The position numbers and the translations under genes are program-made. The notes below the pieces were generated by a model, which was given only the letters and a program-made list of their open reading frames with translations, ran no database searches and was not told the DNA's origin. Of a stretch of 21,551 nucleotides of DNA, positions 3,804-21,551 are shown piece after piece. The DNA lies in the NCBI GenBank assembly GCA_020697515.1, contig JAIXNB010000045.1, positions 1-21,551 on the forward strand. The letters are read 5' to 3'. The stretch is from Nanobdellota archaeon. GTDB taxonomy: Archaea > Nanobdellota > Nanobdellia > Nanobdellales > Nanobdellaceae. Numbering within the stretch: the stretch's first letter is position 1; every line of letters starts with the position of its first letter.

Positions 3804-5174
3804 TCAACCAGTATCTAAATTTTTATTTCTCTCTATCTTAAATCTCTTAAGTGGGTATGAAATAGGATTTTTTATTAATTTACAAATTTCATCCGGGTTA
3901 CATACACCCATATCCTTGTAATACCCTGCATTAGAACAGTTAGGAGGTAGATATCTGAGTCCCTTACCATATTTTTCTTTGTGCCACTGCAATTGATATT
4001 CTATGTATCTTTCCCTTAAAGGATTCGGATTTTTATCGTTCCACTTCCATAACAATGCTTCTATTTCTTTCCAAGACCATTCAAGGTTTATTAAAAAGTT
4101 AATTAGAATAAATAGCGCTCTTTTTCTACCATCTTCAATACCATTCAAAATGTTTTTGATGCATGGCGGAAAATATTTCTCTGGAACTTTTCCTTTAAAT
4201 TTTATCTTAGTCCTTTGCAAATCTTTGGCTACTTCTTCCTCTACTGAGATTTTTAGCTGAGTAGCGCGAATTCTCTCTTTTTCTATTTTATTCACTGCCT
4301 CCCACTTAATAGCAGTATAAATTAGCTTTTCTAATCTAGGTTCTTGATCTACTTCTTCTGTAAGAAATGGTATGCCTTCATAGACATAGTAATCTATATC
4401 TGCTATTTCTGGATTGAATGTATCTGTGTCTTTGGGATCTATTGGAATAGATATTCTACCAGTTTTCTCATTAATGGAGTAAGGCATTCTGAATAAATGC
4501 CTGGATGATATGAGTATAGTATCTATTTCAATTAGATGAAAAGGTGATAGCTGCTCAGGTAGTATATTTAAATTATATTCATTTATTATTTCATTAATGT
4601 CCCAATTTCTTTCTATAAATTTCTTTAGATCCTCTTCTATTTTATAAGCAATATATGATGCTAATGTTCTGGCTAATTCCGGAAATAAGTTTTTAGTGTC
4701 CTCTTTTATAAGTTCATCTCCTTTAGGTACTGTTACTTCTTTTGGGAACAATTCCCATGGAACTGCAATATGGAATCCTTTACCCCCAGAGTACTTTATG
4801 TAAATAGGATGGATTTCTTTACCTGTTAAGAGATCTATAATAAGTTTTGCAGTATAACGAGCTATATTAAAGTTTTTTGAGTCTAGATCTATAATAAGAT
4901 CCCAACCTAGCCTTAATTCATTTAGCTGTGTTTTTTTGAGCTTTGTACTAAGTTCTAGTGGATTTAACCAACGTTCAACAGACATATGAAAAGAAACCGC
5001 CCCTTTTTTTATTAGTTCAAAAATATCTCCTTCATTCTCTAAAATATAAGGTCTTTTGCCAAAAGTACCATCTTCAAACATGTATCCAATTTCTCTATTT
5101 TGAGCAACTTTTATCATATCTCCAAGAACTTCTGGATTTCTCTTATAAAAACTAATTAACTTTGTTTTTAGCAT
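3804..5174 (-). CDS. DNA primase, fused catalytic (PriS) and PriL C-terminal Fe-S domains
   Basis: 456-aa ORF. PriS motifs are WDLIIDLDSK (DxD), YSGGKGFHIAV and SSRHLFRMPYSINEKTG. The C-terminal ~120 aa has FPPCIKNIL plus Cys413/425/431 (PPNC..., GVCNPDEIC), which matches the PriL-CTD 4Fe-4S ligand pattern. Confidence 0.8.
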   Translation of the reverse strand: MLKTKLISFYKRNPEVLGDMIKVAQNREIGYMFEDGTFGKRPYILENEGDIFELIKKGAVSFHMSVERWLNPLELSTKLKKTQLNELRLGWDLIIDLDSKNFNIARYTAKLIIDLLTGKEIHPIYIKYSGGKGFHIAVPWELFPKEVTVPKGDELIKEDTKNLFPELARTLASYIAYKIEEDLKKFIERNWDINEIINEYNLNILPEQLSPFHLIEIDTILISSRHLFRMPYSINEKTGRISIPIDPKDTDTFNPEIADIDYYVYEGIPFLTEEVDQEPRLEKLIYTAIKWEAVNKIEKERIRATQLKISVEEEVAKDLQRTKIKFKGKVPEKYFPPCIKNILNGIEDGRKRALFILINFLINLEWSWKEIEALLWKWNDKNPNPLRERYIEYQLQWHKEKYGKGLRYLPPNCSNAGYYKDMGVCNPDEICKLIKNPISYPLKRFKIERNKNLDTG

Positions 5175-5754: not shown

Positions 5755-6837
5755 TCATAGGAATGGGGCTATAAGTATAGGCAAAATGATTGTTATATCA
5801 CCCCAAACTGTTACATGTTTGGCTTCTTTTTTAATTTTTCCCCAAGATATCGCTTCTCTGGTCTTAGCCCCAGACAAAGATCCATCCAACTCTACAGCAG
5901 AAGTTATATACACTGCATATTCTAAACCACCTGAAAATTGCGCCCACCAAATTACATGGTGCTTAGATATCCCTCCCCCAAGCATTAGAGATCCAATACG
6001 TCTTTCTCCGAAGAATAATTTTGATAAAAATAGTTCATCACTCCATACGGATACTTCGAAATCAGGATGTTCTGTTTTGAACATTAGGATTTGTGTCCCT
6101 ACAGCACCATCCGTAATCCCTGGTACTATCATGGGTATTTTATTTTTATAGCTCCAGTAGATTATACTTTCTTCTTTCTTAGGATGAGACTCTAATCTTC
6201 TCCCAATCTCCCAAATTAACTCGTACGTACCAATAATTTTTTTATTTTCTTCATCTATCTTGAAGTTCAGCTCAGACAAATCTTTGCTATGCGTTTTCAG
6301 ATGATTTTCCAGTTTAACGATCAAACCTTCTTTCTCTCTATCAAATATTTTCTCACCACAAACCGGACATATGATATAATAATAACTTTTCTCTTTAAGT
6401 TTTGTGTAAATATCTTTCAAGATGGGTTGCAACACATTTTCTATAGCGGGTCCATAGTTATCTTCTGGGATAAAAACATTTCCTAGTCTCATCACTCCCT
6501 CATTCTTCAGATATATATCATCAGCCTCAAAGTATCCTAAATGATAGCTCCTTTCTAATCTTGCTAAATCATGATCTAAAGTACCACAAGTAGTTATAAT
6601 CAAATCAAACATTTTATTTTTAACCAAATCTCTAAGTATCCCTCTTGTACCTGTTGCTACAATATCCGCAGGAAAGCTTAGGACTCTAATAATTTCTTTA
6701 TCATTGAACATCTCTTCTAGAATTTCGTAGGCTCTATAAAGTTCTTGAGCCTGAAAACCTCCAATGTTCTTAAACTGTTTTAATAATTCTTTTACCCTGA
6801 TATCGTTATGTATATTCAAATCTTTAACTGGTTCCAT
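5755..6837 (-). CDS. dys: Deoxyhypusine synthase carrying an internal insertion of about 55 aa
   Basis: Motifs are GFQAQELYRAYEIL, ITTCGTLDHDL, PGITDGAVG and LGGGISKHH. The ORF track starts at a TTG (6855). I prefer the ATG at 6837 (MEPVKDL) because AATTTATATTG sits about 24 nt upstream of it. Confidence 0.85.
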   Translation of the reverse strand: MEPVKDLNIHNDIRVKELLKQFKNIGGFQAQELYRAYEILEEMFNDKEIIRVLSFPADIVATGTRGILRDLVKNKMFDLIITTCGTLDHDLARLERSYHLGYFEADDIYLKNEGVMRLGNVFIPEDNYGPAIENVLQPILKDIYTKLKEKSYYYIICPVCGEKIFDREKEGLIVKLENHLKTHSKDLSELNFKIDEENKKIIGTYELIWEIGRRLESHPKKEESIIYWSYKNKIPMIVPGITDGAVGTQILMFKTEHPDFEVSVWSDELFLSKLFFGERRIGSLMLGGGISKHHVIWWAQFSGGLEYAVYITSAVELDGSLSGAKTREAISWGKIKKEAKHVTVWGDITIILPILIAPFL

Positions 6838-6903
6838 TACATATGAAATTATCAAACAATATAAATTAATTTGTATTCAGAAAAATAAATAGCTGAGGAA
6901 ATA

Positions 6904-7089: not shown

Positions 7090-8396
7090 TAATATTTTTC
7101 TTTTAGCCCGGAGTTTATAAATTCCTCTTCCAAGCTTCTTGGTTTTATTTCTCCGGCTAGTGGTGTTAACATTAGATTTTTCACCTCCTCATAGTTTTCT
7201 GTATGACCTAAAACCCACATTAATTTAACGTATGCGACTTCTGGTAACATATCTTCGCAGTGAATTACTCCTAAATTATACAATCTTCTAGCATTGGAAT
7301 ATACAAAAGAATTTGTTCTTCCAAATATAGTTTGAGATGTCATACAAACAATAATTCCTTCCTCCACTGCTCTTTCTATATGAGGGAACCACGATTTTTC
7401 TCTATGTAATGTTTCGGTTGGAGCATGACCAAAACCTGTACCTTCTATTACTATCCCCTTATAACCCTTATCTACGAAGAAATCTATTATTTCAGGATCT
7501 GATCCAGGATATACCTTTACAAGAGCTACTTTTTCATATATCTTCGTATCTAAAAGTACCTCTCCATCATTTCTTCTCCTATAGTTCTTGTTAACGATCT
7601 CTATTTTTCCGGATGGATAGATCTTCGCTAATGGTAAATCATTTATTGATTGAAAAGCATCTCTTCTTTCTGTATGCATTTTTCTGACTCTTGTCCCTCT
7701 GTGTGCATAGCAAAATTCATCAGAAATATATCCATGCATAACAACTGAAACTTCTGCAATATTAGATGTAGCATAAATAGTGGCACAAATCATATTCATA
7801 AAAGCATCAGAGGATCCTCTATCCGAAGATCTTTGGGCGCCAACCAATGCAACTGGTTTACCTAAGTCTCTTAACATAAAAGACAAAGCAGCGGACGTAT
7901 AATGCATTGTATCAGTTCCATGAGGAATTATTACTCCATCTGATCCAGAGTTCAGTTCTTTAGCAACTATTTCAGCAATTTTTACCCATTCTTTTGGGGT
8001 AATATCTTCGGAAGCAATCGAAAATGGGTTTAATATATTGTTAATCACTGCTATATCTTCTAATTCTGGTATCTCATATAAAAGTTCATATGGATCGAGG
8101 AACATATGAACACCACCTGTTCTATAATCTACCCTAGACATTATAGTACCTCCAGTCACGATTATTGACACTCCTTTTAACCCCTCTCTGTATATTGGTT
8201 TTCTCCTTGGAAATTTTGCAACTTCTACCTTTTCTTCCAATGGTATTATATCCTTTATATGATCTTTTTGAAACCCAATATTATATCCATTATTCAGTTT
8301 AAGAATAATCGTGTCTTCATTGGGAGATGGGATAAAAGTACCTTCAAAACTGCGCCCATCTCTAAGTAATAATCTGACCTTTCTCCCATACTCCAT
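7086..8396 (-). CDS. gatD: Glutamyl-tRNA(Gln) amidotransferase subunit D
   Basis: 436-aa ORF with a GatD-type N-terminal domain (VRLLLRDGRSFEGTFIP) followed by an asparaginase-like core with IIVTGGTI and PHGTDTM motifs. Confidence 0.85.
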   Translation of the reverse strand: MEYGRKVRLLLRDGRSFEGTFIPSPNEDTIILKLNNGYNIGFQKDHIKDIIPLEEKVEVAKFPRRKPIYREGLKGVSIIVTGGTIMSRVDYRTGGVHMFLDPYELLYEIPELEDIAVINNILNPFSIASEDITPKEWVKIAEIVAKELNSGSDGVIIPHGTDTMHYTSAALSFMLRDLGKPVALVGAQRSSDRGSSDAFMNMICATIYATSNIAEVSVVMHGYISDEFCYAHRGTRVRKMHTERRDAFQSINDLPLAKIYPSGKIEIVNKNYRRRNDGEVLLDTKIYEKVALVKVYPGSDPEIIDFFVDKGYKGIVIEGTGFGHAPTETLHREKSWFPHIERAVEEGIIVCMTSQTIFGRTNSFVYSNARRLYNLGVIHCEDMLPEVAYVKLMWVLGHTENYEEVKNLMLTPLAGEIKPRSLEEEFINSGLKEKYY

Positions 8397-8953
8397 AATA
8401 TTCCTGTCGATGTAAGTTTTAAATCGATTTAACTTTTAACAAGGTATGCTAAAATTAAAAATTAAAAAAAGGTGTTATGATGCGGCTAAAATAAAGTAAT
8501 TAATATAATACGTGTTTCTCATACTATATAACTAGTTTTTATCCTTACTACTCTCTCCTCAAAATTATTTAGAAAATAAACAGTAATATTCATCCACCTT
8601 GAGAAGTTCTTCCGCTCTGTCCGTACACAGACTTCATCAGGGAGTGCCCTAGATGAAGATGGTTATAGGTTAATGGAGAAAAGATAGATAGTAACAAGTT
8701 AGCAAATACTATTTAAGGTTATTACATATATATGGTATCTTGCATACACTAAGGTATAGTGGTTACATATATAATAAGCATATATAAAATTATCTGAGGA
8801 TATTAAATTATTATCGCCATACTAATTGGGGAAAAACAGTGAGGATACAAAATATCCTGGAAATTATCTGTGTTTTAGTATGGTTGGACTATAAAATTTC
8901 TGTATTTATACCAAAAACAAAAAAATTGAATAGGAAGTGATATTCTACTAATG

Positions 8954-8965
8954 TTTATAATATAA
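8954..8965 (+). promoter_or_regulatory. TATA-like box of ftsZ
   Basis: TTTATAATATAA is centred about 24 nt upstream of the ATG at 8984, consistent with a leaderless transcript. Confidence 0.4.
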
Positions 8966-8983
8966 GCAAAGCAATGTGTTTAC

Positions 8984-15093: not shown

Positions 15094-15369
15094 ATGGGAA
15101 AGGTAATAATAACCCTAAGATTATATCCAGAGAACGTTGAGACTGATTTAAACGCAATAGTAGAGGAAGTTAAAAAAATTATCCAAGAGTTTGGAGGAGA
15201 GTATTGGAAACACGAGGAGGTACCTATAGCTTTTGGTTTAAAGGCTCTTGAAATAAAATTCACATATCCTGATCAGGAATTTAAGGAAGAAGAATTCCTA
15301 AATAAGATAAAAAATACACCAGGAGTAAATGATGCAGAAATAGTCAATGTGACCTTATCGTCAGTTTAA
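15094..15369 (+). CDS. ef1b: Translation elongation factor aEF-1 beta
   Basis: 91 aa from MGKVIITLRLYPENVETDL, with the EEVPIAFGLKALEI core typical of aEF-1beta. The track's start at 15073 overlaps the Zn-ribbon ORF and is probably too early. Confidence 0.85.
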   Translation: MGKVIITLRLYPENVETDLNAIVEEVKKIIQEFGGEYWKHEEVPIAFGLKALEIKFTYPDQEFKEEEFLNKIKNTPGVNDAEIVNVTLSSV

Positions 15370-17363
15370 TGTCATTTGAACTAAAAAATCTAAGTGAGGT
15401 AGATATAGAGAAAATAAAAAGATATATAGAAGAAGAGAGAAAATTTGTTGAAAAAATAATTAGTGGAAAAATAAAAAAAGAAAAAAAGGAGCTTGTAAGA
15501 ACGGTACTTTTCATAGTAGAATCCCCAAATAAGGCTAGAACTATAGCTAATTTTTTTGGTAGGCCTTCTATTAGGACTTTTGGAGGAATACAGGCATACG
15601 AGGTCTCTATCGGAAATCGTCACTTGATTATTACAGCTACTAAAGGCCACCTCATAGATTTAACTACAGACAACATTGGATTATATGGAGTAGTAGTAGC
15701 AGAAAATGGAATATATCCATACTATAATTCTATAAAACGTTGCCTCGAGTGTGGTTATCAATTTACAGAGTATCAAGGACCTGAGAGAAAATGTCCAATA
15801 TGTGGAAGTACAGTTGTAGATGATGCCTGGGAAAGAATAGAAGCGTTACAAAAACTAGCACAGGAGGTAGATGAAATAATAATCGGTACAGACCCTGATT
15901 CGGAGGGCGAATTCATAGCATATGCAGTATATTTGTTACTACAACCTTATACTAAGAAAACTTATCGAGCAGAATTTCATGAAGTCACTAAATATTCAAT
16001 ATTACATGCTCTAGATAATTTAAGGGAGATAGATGTAAATAGAGTTAAGGCTCAAATGGTTAGAAGGATAGAGGATAGATGGTTGGGATTTAGCTTATCC
16101 GAAAAAGTTCAAAAGATATTTAAAAAAAACTGGTTGTCTGCTGGTAGAGTCCAAACCCCCGTCTTGGGATGGATTGTCCAAAGATTCCTAGAATACAAAA
16201 ATTCTCTTTCATATTTTATTGGAATAAAGGCTAGAAAAATAAATCTGGTTCTAGATTTAGACATCAAAGATAAAACAAAGTTGAATGAGATTATAAGGGT
16301 ATTACAGAATGCGAAAGTAGTCATAAAGAATAAAAAGTATTTTGAAGAGGAATTAAATCCTTTACCACCATATATGACGTCAACAATGCTTCAAGATGCT
16401 TCTAACTATCTAGGATTAGGTGTAGATATGATTATGCAGTTAGCACAGGATCTTTTCGAAGCGGGTTTAATAACATATCATCGTACAGACTCTGTAAGAG
16501 TCTCCCCCGCAGGTATACAAGTTGCTAGAGAATATATTTCTGAAAAATTTGGTGAGGATTACTTTAAGCCGAGAGTGTGGGGAGAAGGAGGAGCCCATGA
16601 ATGTATTAGACCAACTAAACCAATAAATTCTGAGACTCTTAGAAATATGATAGAATCTGGTGAGATGGAAGTTTTTGTAGATATATCACCCCAGCATTTT
16701 GCATTATATGGGTTAATCTTTAGGAGATTCATGCAGAGTCAAATGACTCCAGTGGTTGTTAAAAAATTAAAATACACAATAGAAATTCCAGAAATAGAGT
16801 ATAGTAAGGAGGAGGTAGGTATTTCAGATGTAATAAAGCATGGATGGGATTTAATTGATGATTATAGGATAAGGAGTCAGAAAATCGAGGATATAGATAG
16901 CATGGAACTCTCAATAGAGAAAGTAACATATTGGAAGGCAGCAAAAGTGAGATTATATTCTCAATCAGATATAATCAATTTGATGAGAGAGAAAAAAATA
17001 GGTAGACCCTCCACCTATGCGACAATAGTTTCTAAGATACTTAGAAGAGGTTATGCAATAGAATCCGGCAAAAAGCTCGTGCCAACAAAATTAGGAGTAT
17101 ATGTTTATTACTTCTTAAATAAGAAATATGGAAAGTTTGTATCTGAAGAGAGAACAAGACTCTTAGAAGAAAAGATGGACATGATTGAAGAGGGGAAGGT
17201 GGATTATATGCAAGTATTATATGGATTAAAGGAAGAAACTGACGAGATACTAAGACAAATAGATAAGGAAGAGGAACTACAACAAATAATTAACGAGGTT
17301 AATAATATATTTGGTTTCGGATCTGGAAAAAGAGGGGAGTTTAGGAAGTATAAAAAATCATAG
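15369..17363 (+). CDS. rgy: Reverse gyrase, topoisomerase (type IA) half only
   Basis: 664-aa ORF. It has Toprim LFIVESPNKARTIANFFGRPS, a Toprim-embedded zinc ribbon CLECG...CPICG, DPDSEGE and the catalytic tyrosine region GLITYHRTDS. No helicase-like module lies upstream. Its ATG overlaps the aEF-1beta stop (TAATG). Confidence 0.8.
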   Translation: MSFELKNLSEVDIEKIKRYIEEERKFVEKIISGKIKKEKKELVRTVLFIVESPNKARTIANFFGRPSIRTFGGIQAYEVSIGNRHLIITATKGHLIDLTTDNIGLYGVVVAENGIYPYYNSIKRCLECGYQFTEYQGPERKCPICGSTVVDDAWERIEALQKLAQEVDEIIIGTDPDSEGEFIAYAVYLLLQPYTKKTYRAEFHEVTKYSILHALDNLREIDVNRVKAQMVRRIEDRWLGFSLSEKVQKIFKKNWLSAGRVQTPVLGWIVQRFLEYKNSLSYFIGIKARKINLVLDLDIKDKTKLNEIIRVLQNAKVVIKNKKYFEEELNPLPPYMTSTMLQDASNYLGLGVDMIMQLAQDLFEAGLITYHRTDSVRVSPAGIQVAREYISEKFGEDYFKPRVWGEGGAHECIRPTKPINSETLRNMIESGEMEVFVDISPQHFALYGLIFRRFMQSQMTPVVVKKLKYTIEIPEIEYSKEEVGISDVIKHGWDLIDDYRIRSQKIEDIDSMELSIEKVTYWKAAKVRLYSQSDIINLMREKKIGRPSTYATIVSKILRRGYAIESGKKLVPTKLGVYVYYFLNKKYGKFVSEERTRLLEEKMDMIEEGKVDYMQVLYGLKEETDEILRQIDKEEELQQIINEVNNIFGFGSGKRGEFRKYKKS

Positions 17364-18221: not shown

Positions 18222-18779
18222 ATGGTAGATATGGTAACCAAACTACCACACCCCTATCTCCTAGATGTACAAGGAGAGGTACCTAACACATATCTAATAG
18301 GATTAGGTGCTGGATATGTTGCGACATTAGGAGGGGAGACTCTTGTAAGAGATTCTAATGCATTTCAAGCATTTCTTGGAAGATATTCCGATAAAACTGG
18401 GATAAAATTTGATAAGGGGATATTTGGCCATGAATTATTTAGAAGAGTCTTTGTATTAACCTTAGCCAATTTATACTCAGCGTATACTTCAGCAAGATCT
18501 CAATACTTAATCAGCCAAAAAGTACCGGAAGATCGCCTACCTCTATATACTACATATGATGATAAGCTAATAATGTTGGAATTCTTTGGAGAATCTTCCT
18601 ATGAGAACTTAGATGAAATCTTGAGAAGGAATAAGGATGTACATGATGCTATTCTATCTAAAATTCCAGCTAAACTTGAAAATGAACTGCCAAAGGAACT
18701 AAAAGGCGAAATGAATAAACCAAATGGGAAAAATTTTCAACAGCAAGGTGGAGATCAAAAGAAAAACAATCGGGAATAG
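18222..18779 (+). CDS. Hypothetical protein (globular N-terminal ~150 aa, low-complexity K/N/Q tail)
   Basis: 185-aa ORF with a TATA-like AAAATTTATATATTGA about 20 nt upstream. I recognise no family. VPNTYLIGLGAGYVATLGGETLVRDSNAFQAFLG faintly resembles Roadblock/LC7-type folds, but this is speculative. Confidence 0.55.
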   Translation: MVDMVTKLPHPYLLDVQGEVPNTYLIGLGAGYVATLGGETLVRDSNAFQAFLGRYSDKTGIKFDKGIFGHELFRRVFVLTLANLYSAYTSARSQYLISQKVPEDRLPLYTTYDDKLIMLEFFGESSYENLDEILRRNKDVHDAILSKIPAKLENELPKELKGEMNKPNGKNFQQQGGDQKKNNRE

Positions 18780-18784
18780 GGCAA

Positions 18785-19399
18785 ATGGGGTCCACCTTTC
18801 CTGATTTAAATAATAGGGGTGGACCGACAAAAACCCCATCTGATGAAATTAAAACAGATATATCCAAACGATCTATACAAGACTCTTCACAAGATATAGA
18901 TATAAATAAATCTAAAACAGAACCCTCTACACAAATTTCATCACAACAGGTCATGATGGAGCTGCCAAACCCCCTAAAGGAAAGCCTGGGTAAGATATAT
19001 CAGGGCCTAGAAGGCATGGCAAAGTACATTGTTGGTGTAGAGAGAAAGGCAGATGAAGGTTTGCAAAGAATAGGCGGATTAGAAGAGAGGATGGAGAAGG
19101 TAGAGGAAGAGTTTAACGATTTCAAAAAATTCGTAGAAGAGAAATTTGATAAAGTAGATAACAGATTGGACTATGTTGGAAAGGCACTAGACACATTGGC
19201 TGATGCAATAAGAAAAATACCAGTAACATACAATAAATTAGTAAAAGTAGAGCCAGATTCTACAGAAGGAGCACCATTTGAAACTGAAGATGGTGAAATA
19301 AAGTGGTATAAAATCGTCACAGTACACAATGAGGCAGGAAACTACAAACCTATAAAGAGCATTCTCAACAAATTTGAAGACTATAGAAAGAAGGTCTAA
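18785..19399 (+). CDS. Hypothetical protein (disordered N-terminus, central coiled coil, small C-terminal domain)
   Basis: 204-aa ORF starting 5 nt after the previous stop. Residues ~75-140 have heptad-like E/K-rich sequence (LEERMEKVEEEFNDFKKFVEEKFDKVDNRLDYVGKALDTLADAI). I recognise no family. Confidence 0.55.
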   Translation: MGSTFPDLNNRGGPTKTPSDEIKTDISKRSIQDSSQDIDINKSKTEPSTQISSQQVMMELPNPLKESLGKIYQGLEGMAKYIVGVERKADEGLQRIGGLEERMEKVEEEFNDFKKFVEEKFDKVDNRLDYVGKALDTLADAIRKIPVTYNKLVKVEPDSTEGAPFETEDGEIKWYKIVTVHNEAGNYKPIKSILNKFEDYRKKV

Positions 19400-19474: not shown

Positions 19475-21551
19475 ATGTACACTAAATGGTTTGAAGAAAT
19501 ATCCAAAAAAGATATTACACTAGCCGGTGGTAAAGGTGCTAATTTAGGGGAGATGGTAAAAATTGGAATTCCAGTTCCACCAGGATTTGTAGTAACATCT
19601 AGAGGATACTGGAGGTTTGTCGAGTATAATAAGTTAAAAGAGAAAATCCAAGAGATCTTAGAAAAAACAGATATAAACAACCCTAAAGATCTTTTATATG
19701 CTTCTAAAAGCATTCAGGGACTATTTATAAAAGGAGAGATACCAGATGACCTGGAGAGGGAAATTCTAGAAGCGTATAAACAATTGTCAAGTAGATTTAA
19801 TGAGGACGAATCTTTTGTAGCTGTAAGATCCTCAGCTACAGCGGAAGATCTACCTTCCATTGCGGAAGGATCTTATGTTTTAGTAAGAATAAATAAGGAA
19901 ATAGTTTTTGATAAAATTGAAAATGTATTTAAAAGAATTATAAGAGAAAAGTCCAAATTAGAAGTTCCTTCCTTTAAGGATGGGAAGATAAAATGGAAAC
20001 CTGCCGGGGTATACAAACATTATGTAAAAACAAAGCTTTATAAGATTAGAACAAAAACTGGAAAAGAGATAACAATAACTCCTGATCATTCTCTAATTGT
20101 TTTAGATAAAGGTATGAATTTAAAAATAGTAAATATTAGATTCTTAAATAAAGAAGAGGTTTATATTCCAACAATTCTAAATATTCCGATAAAAGAAGGA
20201 AAAGAAGAAATAGATGTTATTTCGATCTTTGAAAAAAATGAAATTGAGTATACGATAGAAAAAGAGAGAGTATATATAACAGATATTTTACAGTATAAGC
20301 AAGAATTAGGGATAAAATATAAGGTTCCATTAAACGAAAAGACAGGTTATTTATTAGGGATCTTTGTTTCAGAGGGAATTATTTATGGAGACCACGTAAT
20401 AGTAAATAATACGAATGAAGAAATCAGAAAGAAAGTTCTTGAGGGGTTAAGGGAATTAGGAATAGAAAAAAAAGATAAGGGAGTAGGCATAAAAGTTCAG
20501 TCTAAATCCTTAGCAAGATTCTTAGGAATGCTCTGTGTTTATAAAAAGGAAAGGGAAGAGGGGAAATTTATTAAAAAGATACCTGAAATTTTATTTGAAG
20601 CTAAGAAAGAAGCAAAATATGCTTTTATAGCTGGGTTAATTGATGGTAGTGGCTGTATTTCTGATTGTGAAATAGAAATTATTACAAAACATGAAATGCT
20701 AGCTTATGAACTAGTATATTTCCTTGCAACATTAGGAATTTTATCAATTTTAAGAAGAAAGGAAAAGTATTATAGGGTTATTATACCTTTAAAATATTCT
20801 AAGAAACTTGCAAAGGATTTAACAAAATACTCTGTTAAAAGAAAAGAGTTAAAGAGAATTTTGGAAAAAGAAATAAAATGCGCTTTTATTAATGGATTAG
20901 AAGATATCTATTTAAGTGGTGAAGATAGAAGTTTTGTAAAAGAAACGACTGTTTACAATGTAAGAGTTGTTTACGGGGGAATAGAAAAAGCTTTGCAGGT
21001 TTTAGAGAAATGTAGGCTGCAGAGGAATATTTTGAATGAAGATATCTTTTGGGACGAAATAGAGAGTGTGGAAGAAATTGAATATGAAGGTTTTGTTTAT
21101 GATTTCATTGTTCCAGAGTATGAAAATTTCTTGGCTAATGGAATATTTACTCATAACACCGCTTCTTTTGCAGGTCAGCAGGCAACATATCTTTGTATAA
21201 AAGGAAAAAACGAGCTTTTAGATGCTGTTAAAAAATGCTGGGCCTCTTTATGGACTGCAAGAGCTATACACTATAGGACTACTATGGGGTTTGACCATAT
21301 GAAAGTAGCATTAGCAGTAGTGATCCAAAAACAGATATTTTCTAAAAAGTCTGGAATAATGTTCACAGCCGATCCCGTTAGAAGTGATCTAAACACAATC
21401 TTAATTGAGGCCTCCTGGGGTTTAGGAGAATCTGTGGTTTCAGGAGAGGTAACACCCGATGAGTATTATGTTGATAAAAAAACCCTAGAGGTTAAAGAGG
21501 TTAGAGTTAATGATAAAGATATTATGACTGTATATAACACTGAAAGGAGAA
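19475..21551 (+). CDS. ppsA: Phosphoenolpyruvate synthase, 5' part, interrupted by an intein (3' end beyond the window)
   Basis: The ORF is open from ATG 19475 to the window end, so it is absent from the track. The N-terminus reads KDITLAGGKGANLGEM...GIPVPPGFVVT...VAVRSSATAEDLP. After the insert it reads TASFAGQQATYL...CWASLWTARAIHYR...SGIMFTADP...IEASWGLGESVVSG. Confidence 0.9.
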   Translation, partial: MYTKWFEEISKKDITLAGGKGANLGEMVKIGIPVPPGFVVTSRGYWRFVEYNKLKEKIQEILEKTDINNPKDLLYASKSIQGLFIKGEIPDDLEREILEAYKQLSSRFNEDESFVAVRSSATAEDLPSIAEGSYVLVRINKEIVFDKIENVFKRIIREKSKLEVPSFKDGKIKWKPAGVYKHYVKTKLYKIRTKTGKEITITPDHSLIVLDKGMNLKIVNIRFLNKEEVYIPTILNIPIKEGKEEIDVISIFEKNEIEYTIEKERVYITDILQYKQELGIKYKVPLNEKTGYLLGIFVSEGIIYGDHVIVNNTNEEIRKKVLEGLRELGIEKKDKGVGIKVQSKSLARFLGMLCVYKKEREEGKFIKKIPEILFEAKKEAKYAFIAGLIDGSGCISDCEIEIITKHEMLAYELVYFLATLGILSILRRKEKYYRVIIPLKYSKKLAKDLTKYSVKRKELKRILEKEIKCAFINGLEDIYLSGEDRSFVKETTVYNVRVVYGGIEKALQVLEKCRLQRNILNEDIFWDEIESVEEIEYEGFVYDFIVPEYENFLANGIFTHNTASFAGQQATYLCIKGKNELLDAVKKCWASLWTARAIHYRTTMGFDHMKVALAVVIQKQIFSKKSGIMFTADPVRSDLNTILIEASWGLGESVVSGEVTPDEYYVDKKTLEVKEVRVNDKDIMTVYNTERR
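19856..21157 (+). mobile_element. Intein (434 aa) with a LAGLIDADG homing-endonuclease domain
   Basis: It starts with Ser (SIAEGSYVLV). Block B is ITITPDHSLIV. The LAGLIDADG motifs are YLLGIFVSEG and FIAGLIDGSG. It ends FLANGIFTHN, followed by Thr +1. Removing it restores SSATAEDLP-TASFAGQQ exactly. Confidence 0.85.

Follow-up and report, generated by a model that had tools for sequence, protein, structure and literature searches.

The phosphoenolpyruvate (PEP) synthase gene (ppsA) of a Candidatus Nanopusillus species is interrupted by a canonical class-1 intein with a LAGLIDADG domain. Very probably, this intein was acquired horizontally, has kept its splicing function while its nuclease decayed, and is now inherited vertically. 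The gene lies at the end of the analyzed stretch of 21,551 nucleotides, which is called the window here. The reading frame opens with ATG 19475 and remains stop-free for 692 codons up to and past the window end (19475–21551), so that translation confirms the open host frame noticed in the earlier sequence-only reading. It was absent from the list of open reading frames because frames that run off the source sequence are not listed. The features of the gene and its insert are as follows.

19475–19855, plus strand: N-extein of ppsA, residues 1–127, ending in VAVRSSATAEDLP (translation; first stretch of PPDK_N).
19856–21157, plus strand: 434-aa class-1 intein with LAGLIDADG endonuclease domain, Ser1 to His433-Asn434, codons 128–561 (Pfam, NCBIfam, AF2, Foldseek).
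19856–19858 (tcc), plus strand: Ser1, N-terminal nucleophile in block A; S-I/V is invariant in 52 aligned same-site inteins.
20078–20089, plus strand: block B, T75-P-D-H78; His78 is invariant in the same-site family.
20348–20377, plus strand: LAGLIDADG motif 1, YLLGIFVSEG, with catalytic Glu173 (20372–20374) kept; the column holds Glu in 44/52 and Asp in 4/52 relatives.
20624–20659, plus strand: LAGLIDADG motif 2, FIAGLIDGSGCI, with Ser265 (agt, 20648–20650) at the catalytic position (aligned to PI-PkoII and PI-PfuI).
20876–21034, plus strand: shortened, cysteine-poor relic of a zinc-ribbon/GRF..PWNKG module, residues 341–393 (pLDDT, alignment with the relative L034, regex).
21095–21106, plus strand: block F, V414-Y-D416-F; VYDF occurs in 52/52 relatives.
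21149–21157, plus strand: block G, T432-H433-N434, with the penultimate His and the terminal Asn (aac); THN is invariant in the family, and TIGR01443 covers 413–434.
21158–21160 (acc), plus strand: Thr+1, first C-extein residue and second nucleophile; Ser or Thr in same-site hosts.
21158–21551, plus strand: start of the C-extein (TASFAGQQ...); the gene runs 1,514 nt past the window, and the C-extein comprises 635 codons and a stop.

The host enzyme is a PEP synthase (pyruvate, water dikinase). Its start aligns with homologs beginning M.YIKWF.ELSK, and two longer contigs (L001 and L002) hold the full-length gene, which encodes a 1196-aa precursor with one intein and includes the catalytic-histidine motif GGINSHAAIVARE as well as the C-terminal PEP-utilizers and PEP-utilizers_C domains. 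When the insert is removed in silico, a 762-aa sequence results that matches the equivalog model NF005057 in a single stretch from end to end (911 bits, cut-off 598) and TIGR01418 with 884.6 bits (cut-off 739.75). The Pfam domain PPDK_N, which is split into two stretches in the precursor, becomes one continuous stretch (3e-95). The spliced junction reads GCGGAAGATCTACCT followed directly by ACCGCTTCTTTTGCA, and the exteins rejoin without a gap, as had been claimed. A junction-spanning peptide of the predicted spliced PpsA of 85 kDa would be AEDLPTASFAGQQ. The precursor is deposited as HIP90373.1 from Candidatus Nanopusillus sp. and is annotated just as “phosphoenolpyruvate synthase”; the true product would be the 762-aa enzyme plus an excised 434-aa intein. 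The deposited name, together with a split reverse gyrase and a fused primase encoded in the same window, bears out the earlier impression of a Nanoarchaeota-like genome. Scanning the window for Rfam families and tRNAs gave no matches.

The insert sits between ...SSATAEDLP and TASFAGQQ..., a conserved motif of the AMP/ATP-binding PPDK_N domain. Coordinates, intein profiles, and fold agree with the initial description of a 434-codon intein that splits the ATP-grasp motif. In Pfam, the insert matches Intein_splicing (PF14890, 2.4e-24), LAGLIDADG_3 (PF14528, 1.6e-12), and Hom_end (3e-7); in NCBIfam, intein_Nterm (TIGR01445, 3.4e-11) and intein_Cterm (TIGR01443, 9.5e-6; 25.7 bits, cut-off 15.6) exceed their curated cut-offs. 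These matches are far beyond chance, and the proposed search with Hint and LAGLIDADG models, which also returned PEP synthase for the spliced extein, thus came out positive. The AF2 model of the intein (pLDDT 83, pTM 0.85) retrieves the TliVMA intein (2e-22), PI-PkoII (2e-20), PI-PfuI (2e-17), and also PI-SceI in Foldseek. A class-3 intein with a WCT triad was considered and rejected, as Ser1 is present and block F reads VYDF without a cysteine. The intein has a GC content of 0.283 versus 0.35 in the exteins.

All residues typical of class-1 splicing are present, namely the nucleophile at position 1, the TxxH motif as T75-P-D-H78, VYDF, and the terminal HN within THN followed by Thr+1, in a Hint domain recognized by both profile and fold. 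The claim of intact splicing residues therefore holds, and splicing itself is predicted. We infer both the splicing steps, based on residue conservation and the known course of intein splicing, and the loss of cleavage activity discussed below. Splicing would start with an N-O acyl shift at Ser1 of the 1196-aa precursor, followed by transesterification through the hydroxyl group of Thr+1. Asn434 would then cyclize with the assistance of His433, and His78 of block B and Asp416 of block F would contribute. A final O-N shift would yield the contiguous SSATAEDLP-TASFAGQQ nucleotide-binding motif and the 762-aa PEP synthase. For PpsA to function, the splicing residues have to be intact, and they are.

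The window intein belongs to a widespread family, as indicated by its identical insertion point (AEDLP/[ST]ASFAGQQ) and intein homology. A degenerate DNA pattern for THN-x-A-x-FAGQQ was searched over species-representative genomes, and all 66 of its 66 matches are true same-site PpsA inteins, each in a different species-representative genome. The hosts are DPANN archaea, haloarchaea, methanogens, and CPR bacteria. With 66 such genomes occupied, the notion that an intein at this site is rare has to be abandoned. Neither is the Ser1/Thr+1 pair special, as had been thought, since 66/66 carry Ser1 and Ser or Thr at +1; block B His, VYDF, and THN are likewise invariant. In intein-free relatives, the +1 position is N, E, or D and occasionally S or T. 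Relatives were found by a full HMMER scan; a word-index search, which performs poorly on Lys/Glu/Ile-rich intein sequences, gave only three matches (one for the phospho-histidine-site intein of Methanococci as query). The nearest members, L034 from an Aenigmatarchaeota metagenome-assembled genome (MAG) and P0001, are homologous over the full length with 38–43% identity, compared to 26–35% for the rest of the family. Members of the family usually combine a zinc-ribbon module with a double-motif LAGLIDADG endonuclease that looks active. A 162-aa mini-intein and degenerate relatives exist and represent the other stages of the homing cycle. In another nanoarchaeon, a single 90%-identity cluster contains alleles with and without the intein; therefore, the family is or was mobile. 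A scan of viral contigs revealed no viral reservoir, and its single match was due to chance (3-codon upstream open reading frame, PALFAGQQ).

The endonuclease domain has two LAGLIDADG helices in a doubled alpha-beta-beta-alpha-beta-beta-alpha fold, which is recognized by PF14528 in two stretches and by Foldseek matches to I-DmoI, I-Tsp061I, and PI-SceI. Two specific lesions set it apart from the family. The first concerns the acidic residue that ends each LAGLIDADG motif. Both acids had been read as kept, which holds for Glu173 in motif 1 but fails for motif 2, where the catalytic position is occupied by Ser265. The aspartate visible in FIAGLIDGSG (20624–20653), D263, is noncatalytic. In the alignment, Ser265 stands where PI-PkoII has Asp (IGDGD) and PI-PfuI has Glu (FDAEG), and its column contains Asp in 49/52 same-site relatives, while Ser is found in the window copy only (53 aligned members). 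The closest relatives, L034 and P0001, read DGDG at motif 2. The second lesion is the collapse of the zinc-ribbon module. A CxxC..CxxC ribbon is present in 47/52 relatives (regex), whereas the window intein lacks both the ribbon and the GRF..PWNKG stretch and counts 434 aa compared to a family mode of ~520. Relative to L034, ~55 residues are absent from the relic region together with the CxxC...CxxC ligands, and residues 341–393 have a pLDDT below 50 in the AF2 model and are predicted to be disordered. The statement that the endonuclease residues are intact is thus overturned by Ser265 and the lost module.

In LAGLIDADG enzymes, loss of one catalytic acid abolishes double-strand cleavage (I-CreI D20, PI-SceI D218/D326, I-DmoI D21/E117), while nicking is still possible for an enzyme with one intact site. 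The homing endonuclease is thus probably no longer intact. Given Ser265 and the collapsed ribbon, the Nanopusillus intein is most likely unable to home and inherited vertically, although some mobility may be left because one intact site can still nick. The copy would now be in a decaying state after invasion, with splicing intact. A column-wise comparison was rejected as proof of decay. The window intein deviates at 20/38 conserved endonuclease columns versus 3/29 splicing columns (Fisher p = 3e-4), but its sister L034, which keeps DGDG and the zinc ribbon, deviates similarly (18/41 conserved endonuclease columns). What the statistic captures is therefore divergence of the subclade, which leaves the two lesions as the sole basis of the argument for decay. 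Against this background, it is unlikely that the intein is fully functional and mobile, with splicing and endonuclease both active, and is now invading Nanoarchaeota. Two LAGLIDADG helices in an endonuclease fold, the retained Glu173, an intact frame in five assemblies, and empty sites in close relatives that suggest a fairly recent arrival would fit such an element; the unique Ser265, with its expected effect on cleavage, and the missing four-cysteine module speak against it.

Horizontal acquisition of the Nanopusillus copy is probable, since the site is empty in the most closely related PpsA proteins; the direction of transfer is read from this sequence comparison. The nearest exteins are intein-free (80% identity for P0186; 63–70% for Nanopusillaceae, Nanoclepta, and Nanobdella) and read AEDLP-x-ASFAGQQ with the same spacing at a site of equal length. 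Among other hosts with an intein at this site, extein identity to the window does not exceed 53%. A less parsimonious history would place the intein in an ancestor, with repeated loss within Nanopusillaceae. Five independent assemblies (JGI, NCBI, ENA, Logan) contain the same allele and junctions, with 0–3 nucleotide differences within the intein; the four intein substitutions in total are too few for dN/dS, and the intein may be fixed in the host species, for which these five near-identical assemblies were compared. Metagenome contigs gave zero matches to an empty-site allele of the host species, in a search whose positive control, the occupied junction, also gave zero.

It is improbable that the intein has been co-opted as a temperature or substrate switch and that the AEDLP/[ST]ASF family forms an uncatalogued cysteine-free allele spanning both prokaryotic domains with its own zinc-ribbon DNA-binding module; if true, the family could supply redox-insensitive thermostable inteins. 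Very improbable is the proposal that temperature, redox state, or substrate gates splicing and thereby gluconeogenic PEP synthesis in this obligate symbiont. Such domestication would explain persistence without a working nuclease, the intein does interrupt the nucleotide-binding motif in an enzyme central to gluconeogenesis, and the strict conservation of its splicing residues contrasts with a decaying nuclease. Conditional protein splicing is also described for hyperthermophile RadA and for other proteins. However, any intein in a needed gene would keep its splicing residues, a redox switch of the known disulfide type is ruled out by the Ser/Thr nucleophiles, the intein is missing from the closest relatives, and no specific pointer to regulation is present. 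That a dead, non-splicing insert inactivates ppsA as a pseudogene, or that the assembly is chimeric, is scarcely credible, since nothing specific favors it beyond a reduced host genome, where gene decay is common, and the 1196-codon frame is open, the catalytic intein residues are all conserved, PpsA is otherwise of full length and scores above its curated cut-off, and the junctions are identical in five independent assemblies.

The preferred reading, a horizontally acquired intein that would still splice and most likely no longer homes, makes the window copy an illustration of a late stage of the homing cycle, in which the nuclease is lost and splicing is kept. It is a genuine but ordinary intein of a widespread family that adds to the catalogue without a new mechanism, and the current understanding stands. 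At least four intein insertion sites are now apparent in PpsA, which makes it a multi-site host. Among the literature searched, only the phospho-histidine site of PpsA is named, and a published description of the AEDLP/[ST]ASFAGQQ site was not found; earlier cataloguing, for example in InBase, is possible.

The connection drawn at the outset with the PEP synthase intein of Methanocaldococcus does not hold at the level of the site. The described PEP synthase (PEPS) intein site is GG[TRM]T/CHAA at the phospho-histidine (PMC10710043). The corresponding position in the gene of the window reads GGINSHAA without an insert. The two types share PEP synthase as the host enzyme and a LAGLIDADG intein in a catalytic motif, but the Mja PEP-type site, known here from PMC10710043 and the Methanococci MAG L022, is located ~300 extein residues downstream. 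It furthermore uses Cys1/Cys+1 instead of Ser1/Thr+1, and the L022 intein at this site ends in FN instead of HN. This Methanococci MAG harbors a 412-aa intein at the phospho-histidine site plus one at the site of the window intein, and both types occur in one PpsA in L022, L043, L052, L062, L071, P0021, P0038, and P0050.

Structurally characterized archaeal inteins resemble the window intein in architecture. TliVMA/PhoVMA (7qss, 7qst), PI-PkoII (2cw7), and PI-PfuI (1dq3) combine a Hint domain with a double-motif LAGLIDADG endonuclease, with Foldseek E-values of 2e-22 to 2e-17 and TM scores of 0.57–0.71; the sequence matches (2.5e-15 to 1e-8) reach only 16–21% identity. They reside in other host proteins and at other sites, and PI-PkoII and PI-PfuI have an acid at each of the two catalytic positions, unlike the window intein with Ser265. 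Inteins of archaeal VirB11/FlaI-type secretion ATPases (P0011, P0020, P0024, P0027) rank with the best non-allelic matches, at E-values of 1e-37 to 1e-27. They differ in the host protein and in the insertion site, which follows GxxGxGKS, and retain LIDGDG, yet they share with the window intein a similar C-terminal block, ...NFEANGIFVHN followed by T.

The open reading frame of ppsA, which encodes phosphoenolpyruvate (PEP) synthase, extends over 19475-21551 as 692 sense codons with 0 stops on translation. It is absent from the ORF listing simply because frames that leave the sequence are not listed there. The sequence-only reading had it open to the window end without a stop and placed a 434-codon insert inside it; both points hold, the coordinates of the insert being borne out by translation and profile matches:

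from 19475, + strand: N-extein, residues 1-127, ending in VAVRSSATAEDLP
19856-21157, + strand: intein, codons 128-561, reading SIAEGSYV...ANGIFTHN
directly after 21157, + strand: start of the C-extein, opening with TASFAGQQATYL

The insert is an authentic class-1 intein of canonical type that includes a LAGLIDADG domain. On its own it matches both splicing and LAGLIDADG models, namely Intein_splicing (2.4e-24), LAGLIDADG_3 (1.6e-12, in two stretches) and Hom_end (3e-7) in Pfam, and intein_Nterm and intein_Cterm in NCBIfam, the latter two above their curated cut-offs. Among proteins of known structure, it is closest in sequence to PI-PkoII (2.5e-15), the PhoCDC21-1 intein and VMA inteins. The Pfam match to PPDK_N is broken in two in the precursor, and taking out the insert makes it a single continuous one (3e-95). 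The spliced extein can be followed further on longer public contigs, reached via the protein encoded just upstream, which span the entire ppsA of 1196 codons with one intein; downstream of the intein follow the PEP-utilizers and then the PEP-utilizers_C domains. The PpsA of 762 aa, spliced in silico, matches the equivalog models for PEP synthase over the full length (911 and 885 bits, above cut-off), and the same occupied allele is present in five independent assemblies with 0-3 nucleotide differences within the intein. This makes it very unlikely that the insert stems from misassembly or that ppsA is a pseudogene.

The exact protein record is HIP90373.1, "phosphoenolpyruvate synthase [Candidatus Nanopusillus sp.]". 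This agrees with the Nanoarchaeota-like genome proposed earlier, as do two hallmarks of Nanoarchaeota in the window:

15369-17363, + strand: topoisomerase half of reverse gyrase, 664-aa ORF (TIGR01054 positions 560-1171 of 1172, 7e-231)
3804-5174, - strand: fused PriS-PriL primase, a single 456-aa ORF with small and large primase subunit domains

The helicase half of reverse gyrase is absent from the window; a split reverse gyrase is reported for N. equitans and Nst1 (PMC3655853, Table 1).

In the literature searched, a single intein site is described for PEP synthase, GG[TRM]T/CHAA in the phospho-histidine loop (PMC10710043). In L022, a Methanococci MAG, this loop holds an intein of 412 aa that ends FN|CHAA, and a second intein, of 494 aa, lies at AEDLP/[ST]ASF. 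In both its length and its penultimate Phe, the 412-aa intein appears to match the Mja PEP intein (InBase; Chen et al. 2000). Whereas the Methanocaldococcus-type intein occupies the phospho-histidine loop, the window's intein lies at AEDLP/[ST]ASF and its gene has the other site empty (GGINS-HAA), so the suggested link to Methanocaldococcus fails at the allele level. PpsA has at least four insertion sites: beside AEDLP/[ST]ASF, these are VNSEK/C, GGxT/CHAA (the phospho-histidine loop) and ELGIP/CIVG. Several PpsA proteins harbor two inteins (multi-site set: proteins P0007, P0010, P0021, P0038, P0050 and P0215-P0220; loci L022, L043, L052, L062 and L071).

When 1.84 billion representative proteins were scanned in full with HMMER, 1562 relatives of the window's intein were recovered. 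The top matches are PpsA proteins split at the identical point (...SSATAEDLP|SI....THN|[ST]ASFAGQQ), and where the host of such a protein is named, it is a MAG of Woesearchaeota, Nanoarchaeota or Aenigmatarchaeota. The junction THN-x-A-x-FAGQQ, searched as a degenerate DNA pattern, matched 66 stretches across 185,579 species-representative genomes, all 66 of which translate as PpsA genes with an intein at AEDLP/[ST]ASF. The DPANN hosts comprise Woese-, Pace-, Nano-, Aenigmat- and Micrarchaeota and Diapherotrites/Iainarchaeia; further archaeal hosts are several Halobacteria, a Methanococci MAG, Methanosarcinales, ANME-1 and Thermoplasmatales. The same-site intein also occurs in seven MAGs labelled CPR/Patescibacteria (L012, L013, L021, L027, L031, L047, L055) and in one labelled Gammaproteobacteria (L061), which suggests cross-domain spread if these labels are taken as given. 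The only match on viral contigs, L072 (IMGVR_UViG_3300005747_000076, 7615-7646), reads THN-PALFAGQQ behind a 3-codon upstream frame and was rejected as a chance match rather than a PpsA intein. No description of the AEDLP/[ST]ASF site was found in the articles searched, and IMG automated annotation already labels fragments "intein/homing endonuclease"; the site is common in public data yet apparently undescribed.

Ser1, the block B His, VYDF of block F and THN of block G are invariant in a MAFFT alignment of 52 complete same-site copies and the window's. The Ser1/Thr+1 pair, singled out in the sequence-only reading, is thus the family norm, with Ser1 invariant and [ST] at +1. The usual length is ~520 aa, and in 47 of the 52 relatives the endonuclease domain is separated from block F by a CxxC...CxxC ribbon. 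In most same-site inteins (P0007-P0026; L006-L071) it takes the form CxxC..(8-30)..CxxC followed by a conserved GRFxKGxxPWNKG, for example at residues ~360-430 of the intein of L034, an Aenigmatarchaeota MAG. The region gives weak zinc-ribbon matches at most in Pfam and is presumably an additional DNA-binding module. Some copies are mini-inteins (162 aa) or degenerate (259-422 aa), and one 90%-identity cluster from another nanoarchaeon holds a 1281-aa intein-plus ppsA alongside a 765-aa intein-free one (P0008/P0156, from L015, Nanoarchaeota SCGC AAA011-G17, versus P0157-P0159). The empty site in this cluster reads AEDRAD-ASFAGQQ, and the flanks, DLP|T when occupied versus DRAD when empty, differ as would be expected from co-conversion or an immune allele. 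Such variety is expected for a homing element at differing stages of its cycle.

The splicing residues of the window's copy (Ser1, T75..H78, D416, H433-N434 and Thr+1) are complete, as judged from sequence and as read earlier. The claim of intact endonuclease residues, however, is unsupported. LAGLIDADG motif 1 retains Glu173, but in motif 2 (FIAGLIDGSGCI) the catalytic position, right before the final Gly, is Ser265 (agt, 20648-20650), which HMMER aligns with Asp in PI-PkoII (IGDGD) and with Glu in PI-PfuI (FDAEG). The column holds Asp in 49 of the 52 relatives, including the two closest (L034 and P0001), and Ser in the window's copy only. A LAGLIDADG enzyme that has lost one catalytic acid can no longer cut both strands and is a nickase at best, and the homing nuclease is for this reason probably disabled. 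Of the ribbon module, a shortened, cysteine-poor segment remains (residues 341-393), which is predicted to be disordered; the remainder of the AlphaFold model is confident (pLDDT 83, pTM 0.85), with the TliVMA intein (2e-22), PI-PkoII, PI-PfuI and PI-SceI as top structural matches. Conserved columns are changed at 20 of 38 endonuclease positions versus 3 of 29 splicing positions, but this count was set aside as evidence of decay, because the intact-looking sister intein of L034 is changed at 18 of 41 and the signal is therefore mostly subclade divergence. The most far-reaching reading, in which the intein has been co-opted to switch gluconeogenesis through conditional splicing, or the family is an uncatalogued one that spans domains, lacks cysteine nucleophiles and merits mining, is improbable. 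The window's copy appears to represent the standard homing cycle at its decaying stage.

Each of the closest exteins measures 750-765 aa and has an empty intein site with identical spacing. The closest relative, P0186, is 80% identical to the window's extein and has the empty site AEDLPEYSFAGQQ; exteins of Nanopusillaceae, Nanoclepta minutus and Nanobdella aerobiophila are 63-70% identical, with the empty site mostly DLPNASF. No extein from another same-site host exceeds 53% identity to the window's, the nearest intein (Aenigmatarchaeota MAG) is only 38-43% identical, and GC is 0.283 in the intein versus 0.35 in the exteins. Horizontal acquisition by this Nanopusillus lineage is the parsimonious reading.

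Among the other genes of the window are:

5755-6855, - strand: deoxyhypusine synthase, model match in two stretches with a ~50-aa insert between
1622-2152 and 2152-2643, - strand; 18222-18779 and 18785-19399, + strand: four ORFs without significant Pfam match

The gatD-ftsZ gap (8397-8983, ~590 nt) holds no ORF of at least 60 aa, no tRNA and no Rfam match. The insert of deoxyhypusine synthase, with its CPVC...H...H, looks like a small zinc finger. Among the four ORFs without Pfam match is one of 185 aa, whose homologue in the contig of P0186 (L073) shares 44% identity and sits two genes upstream of the intein-free ppsA.
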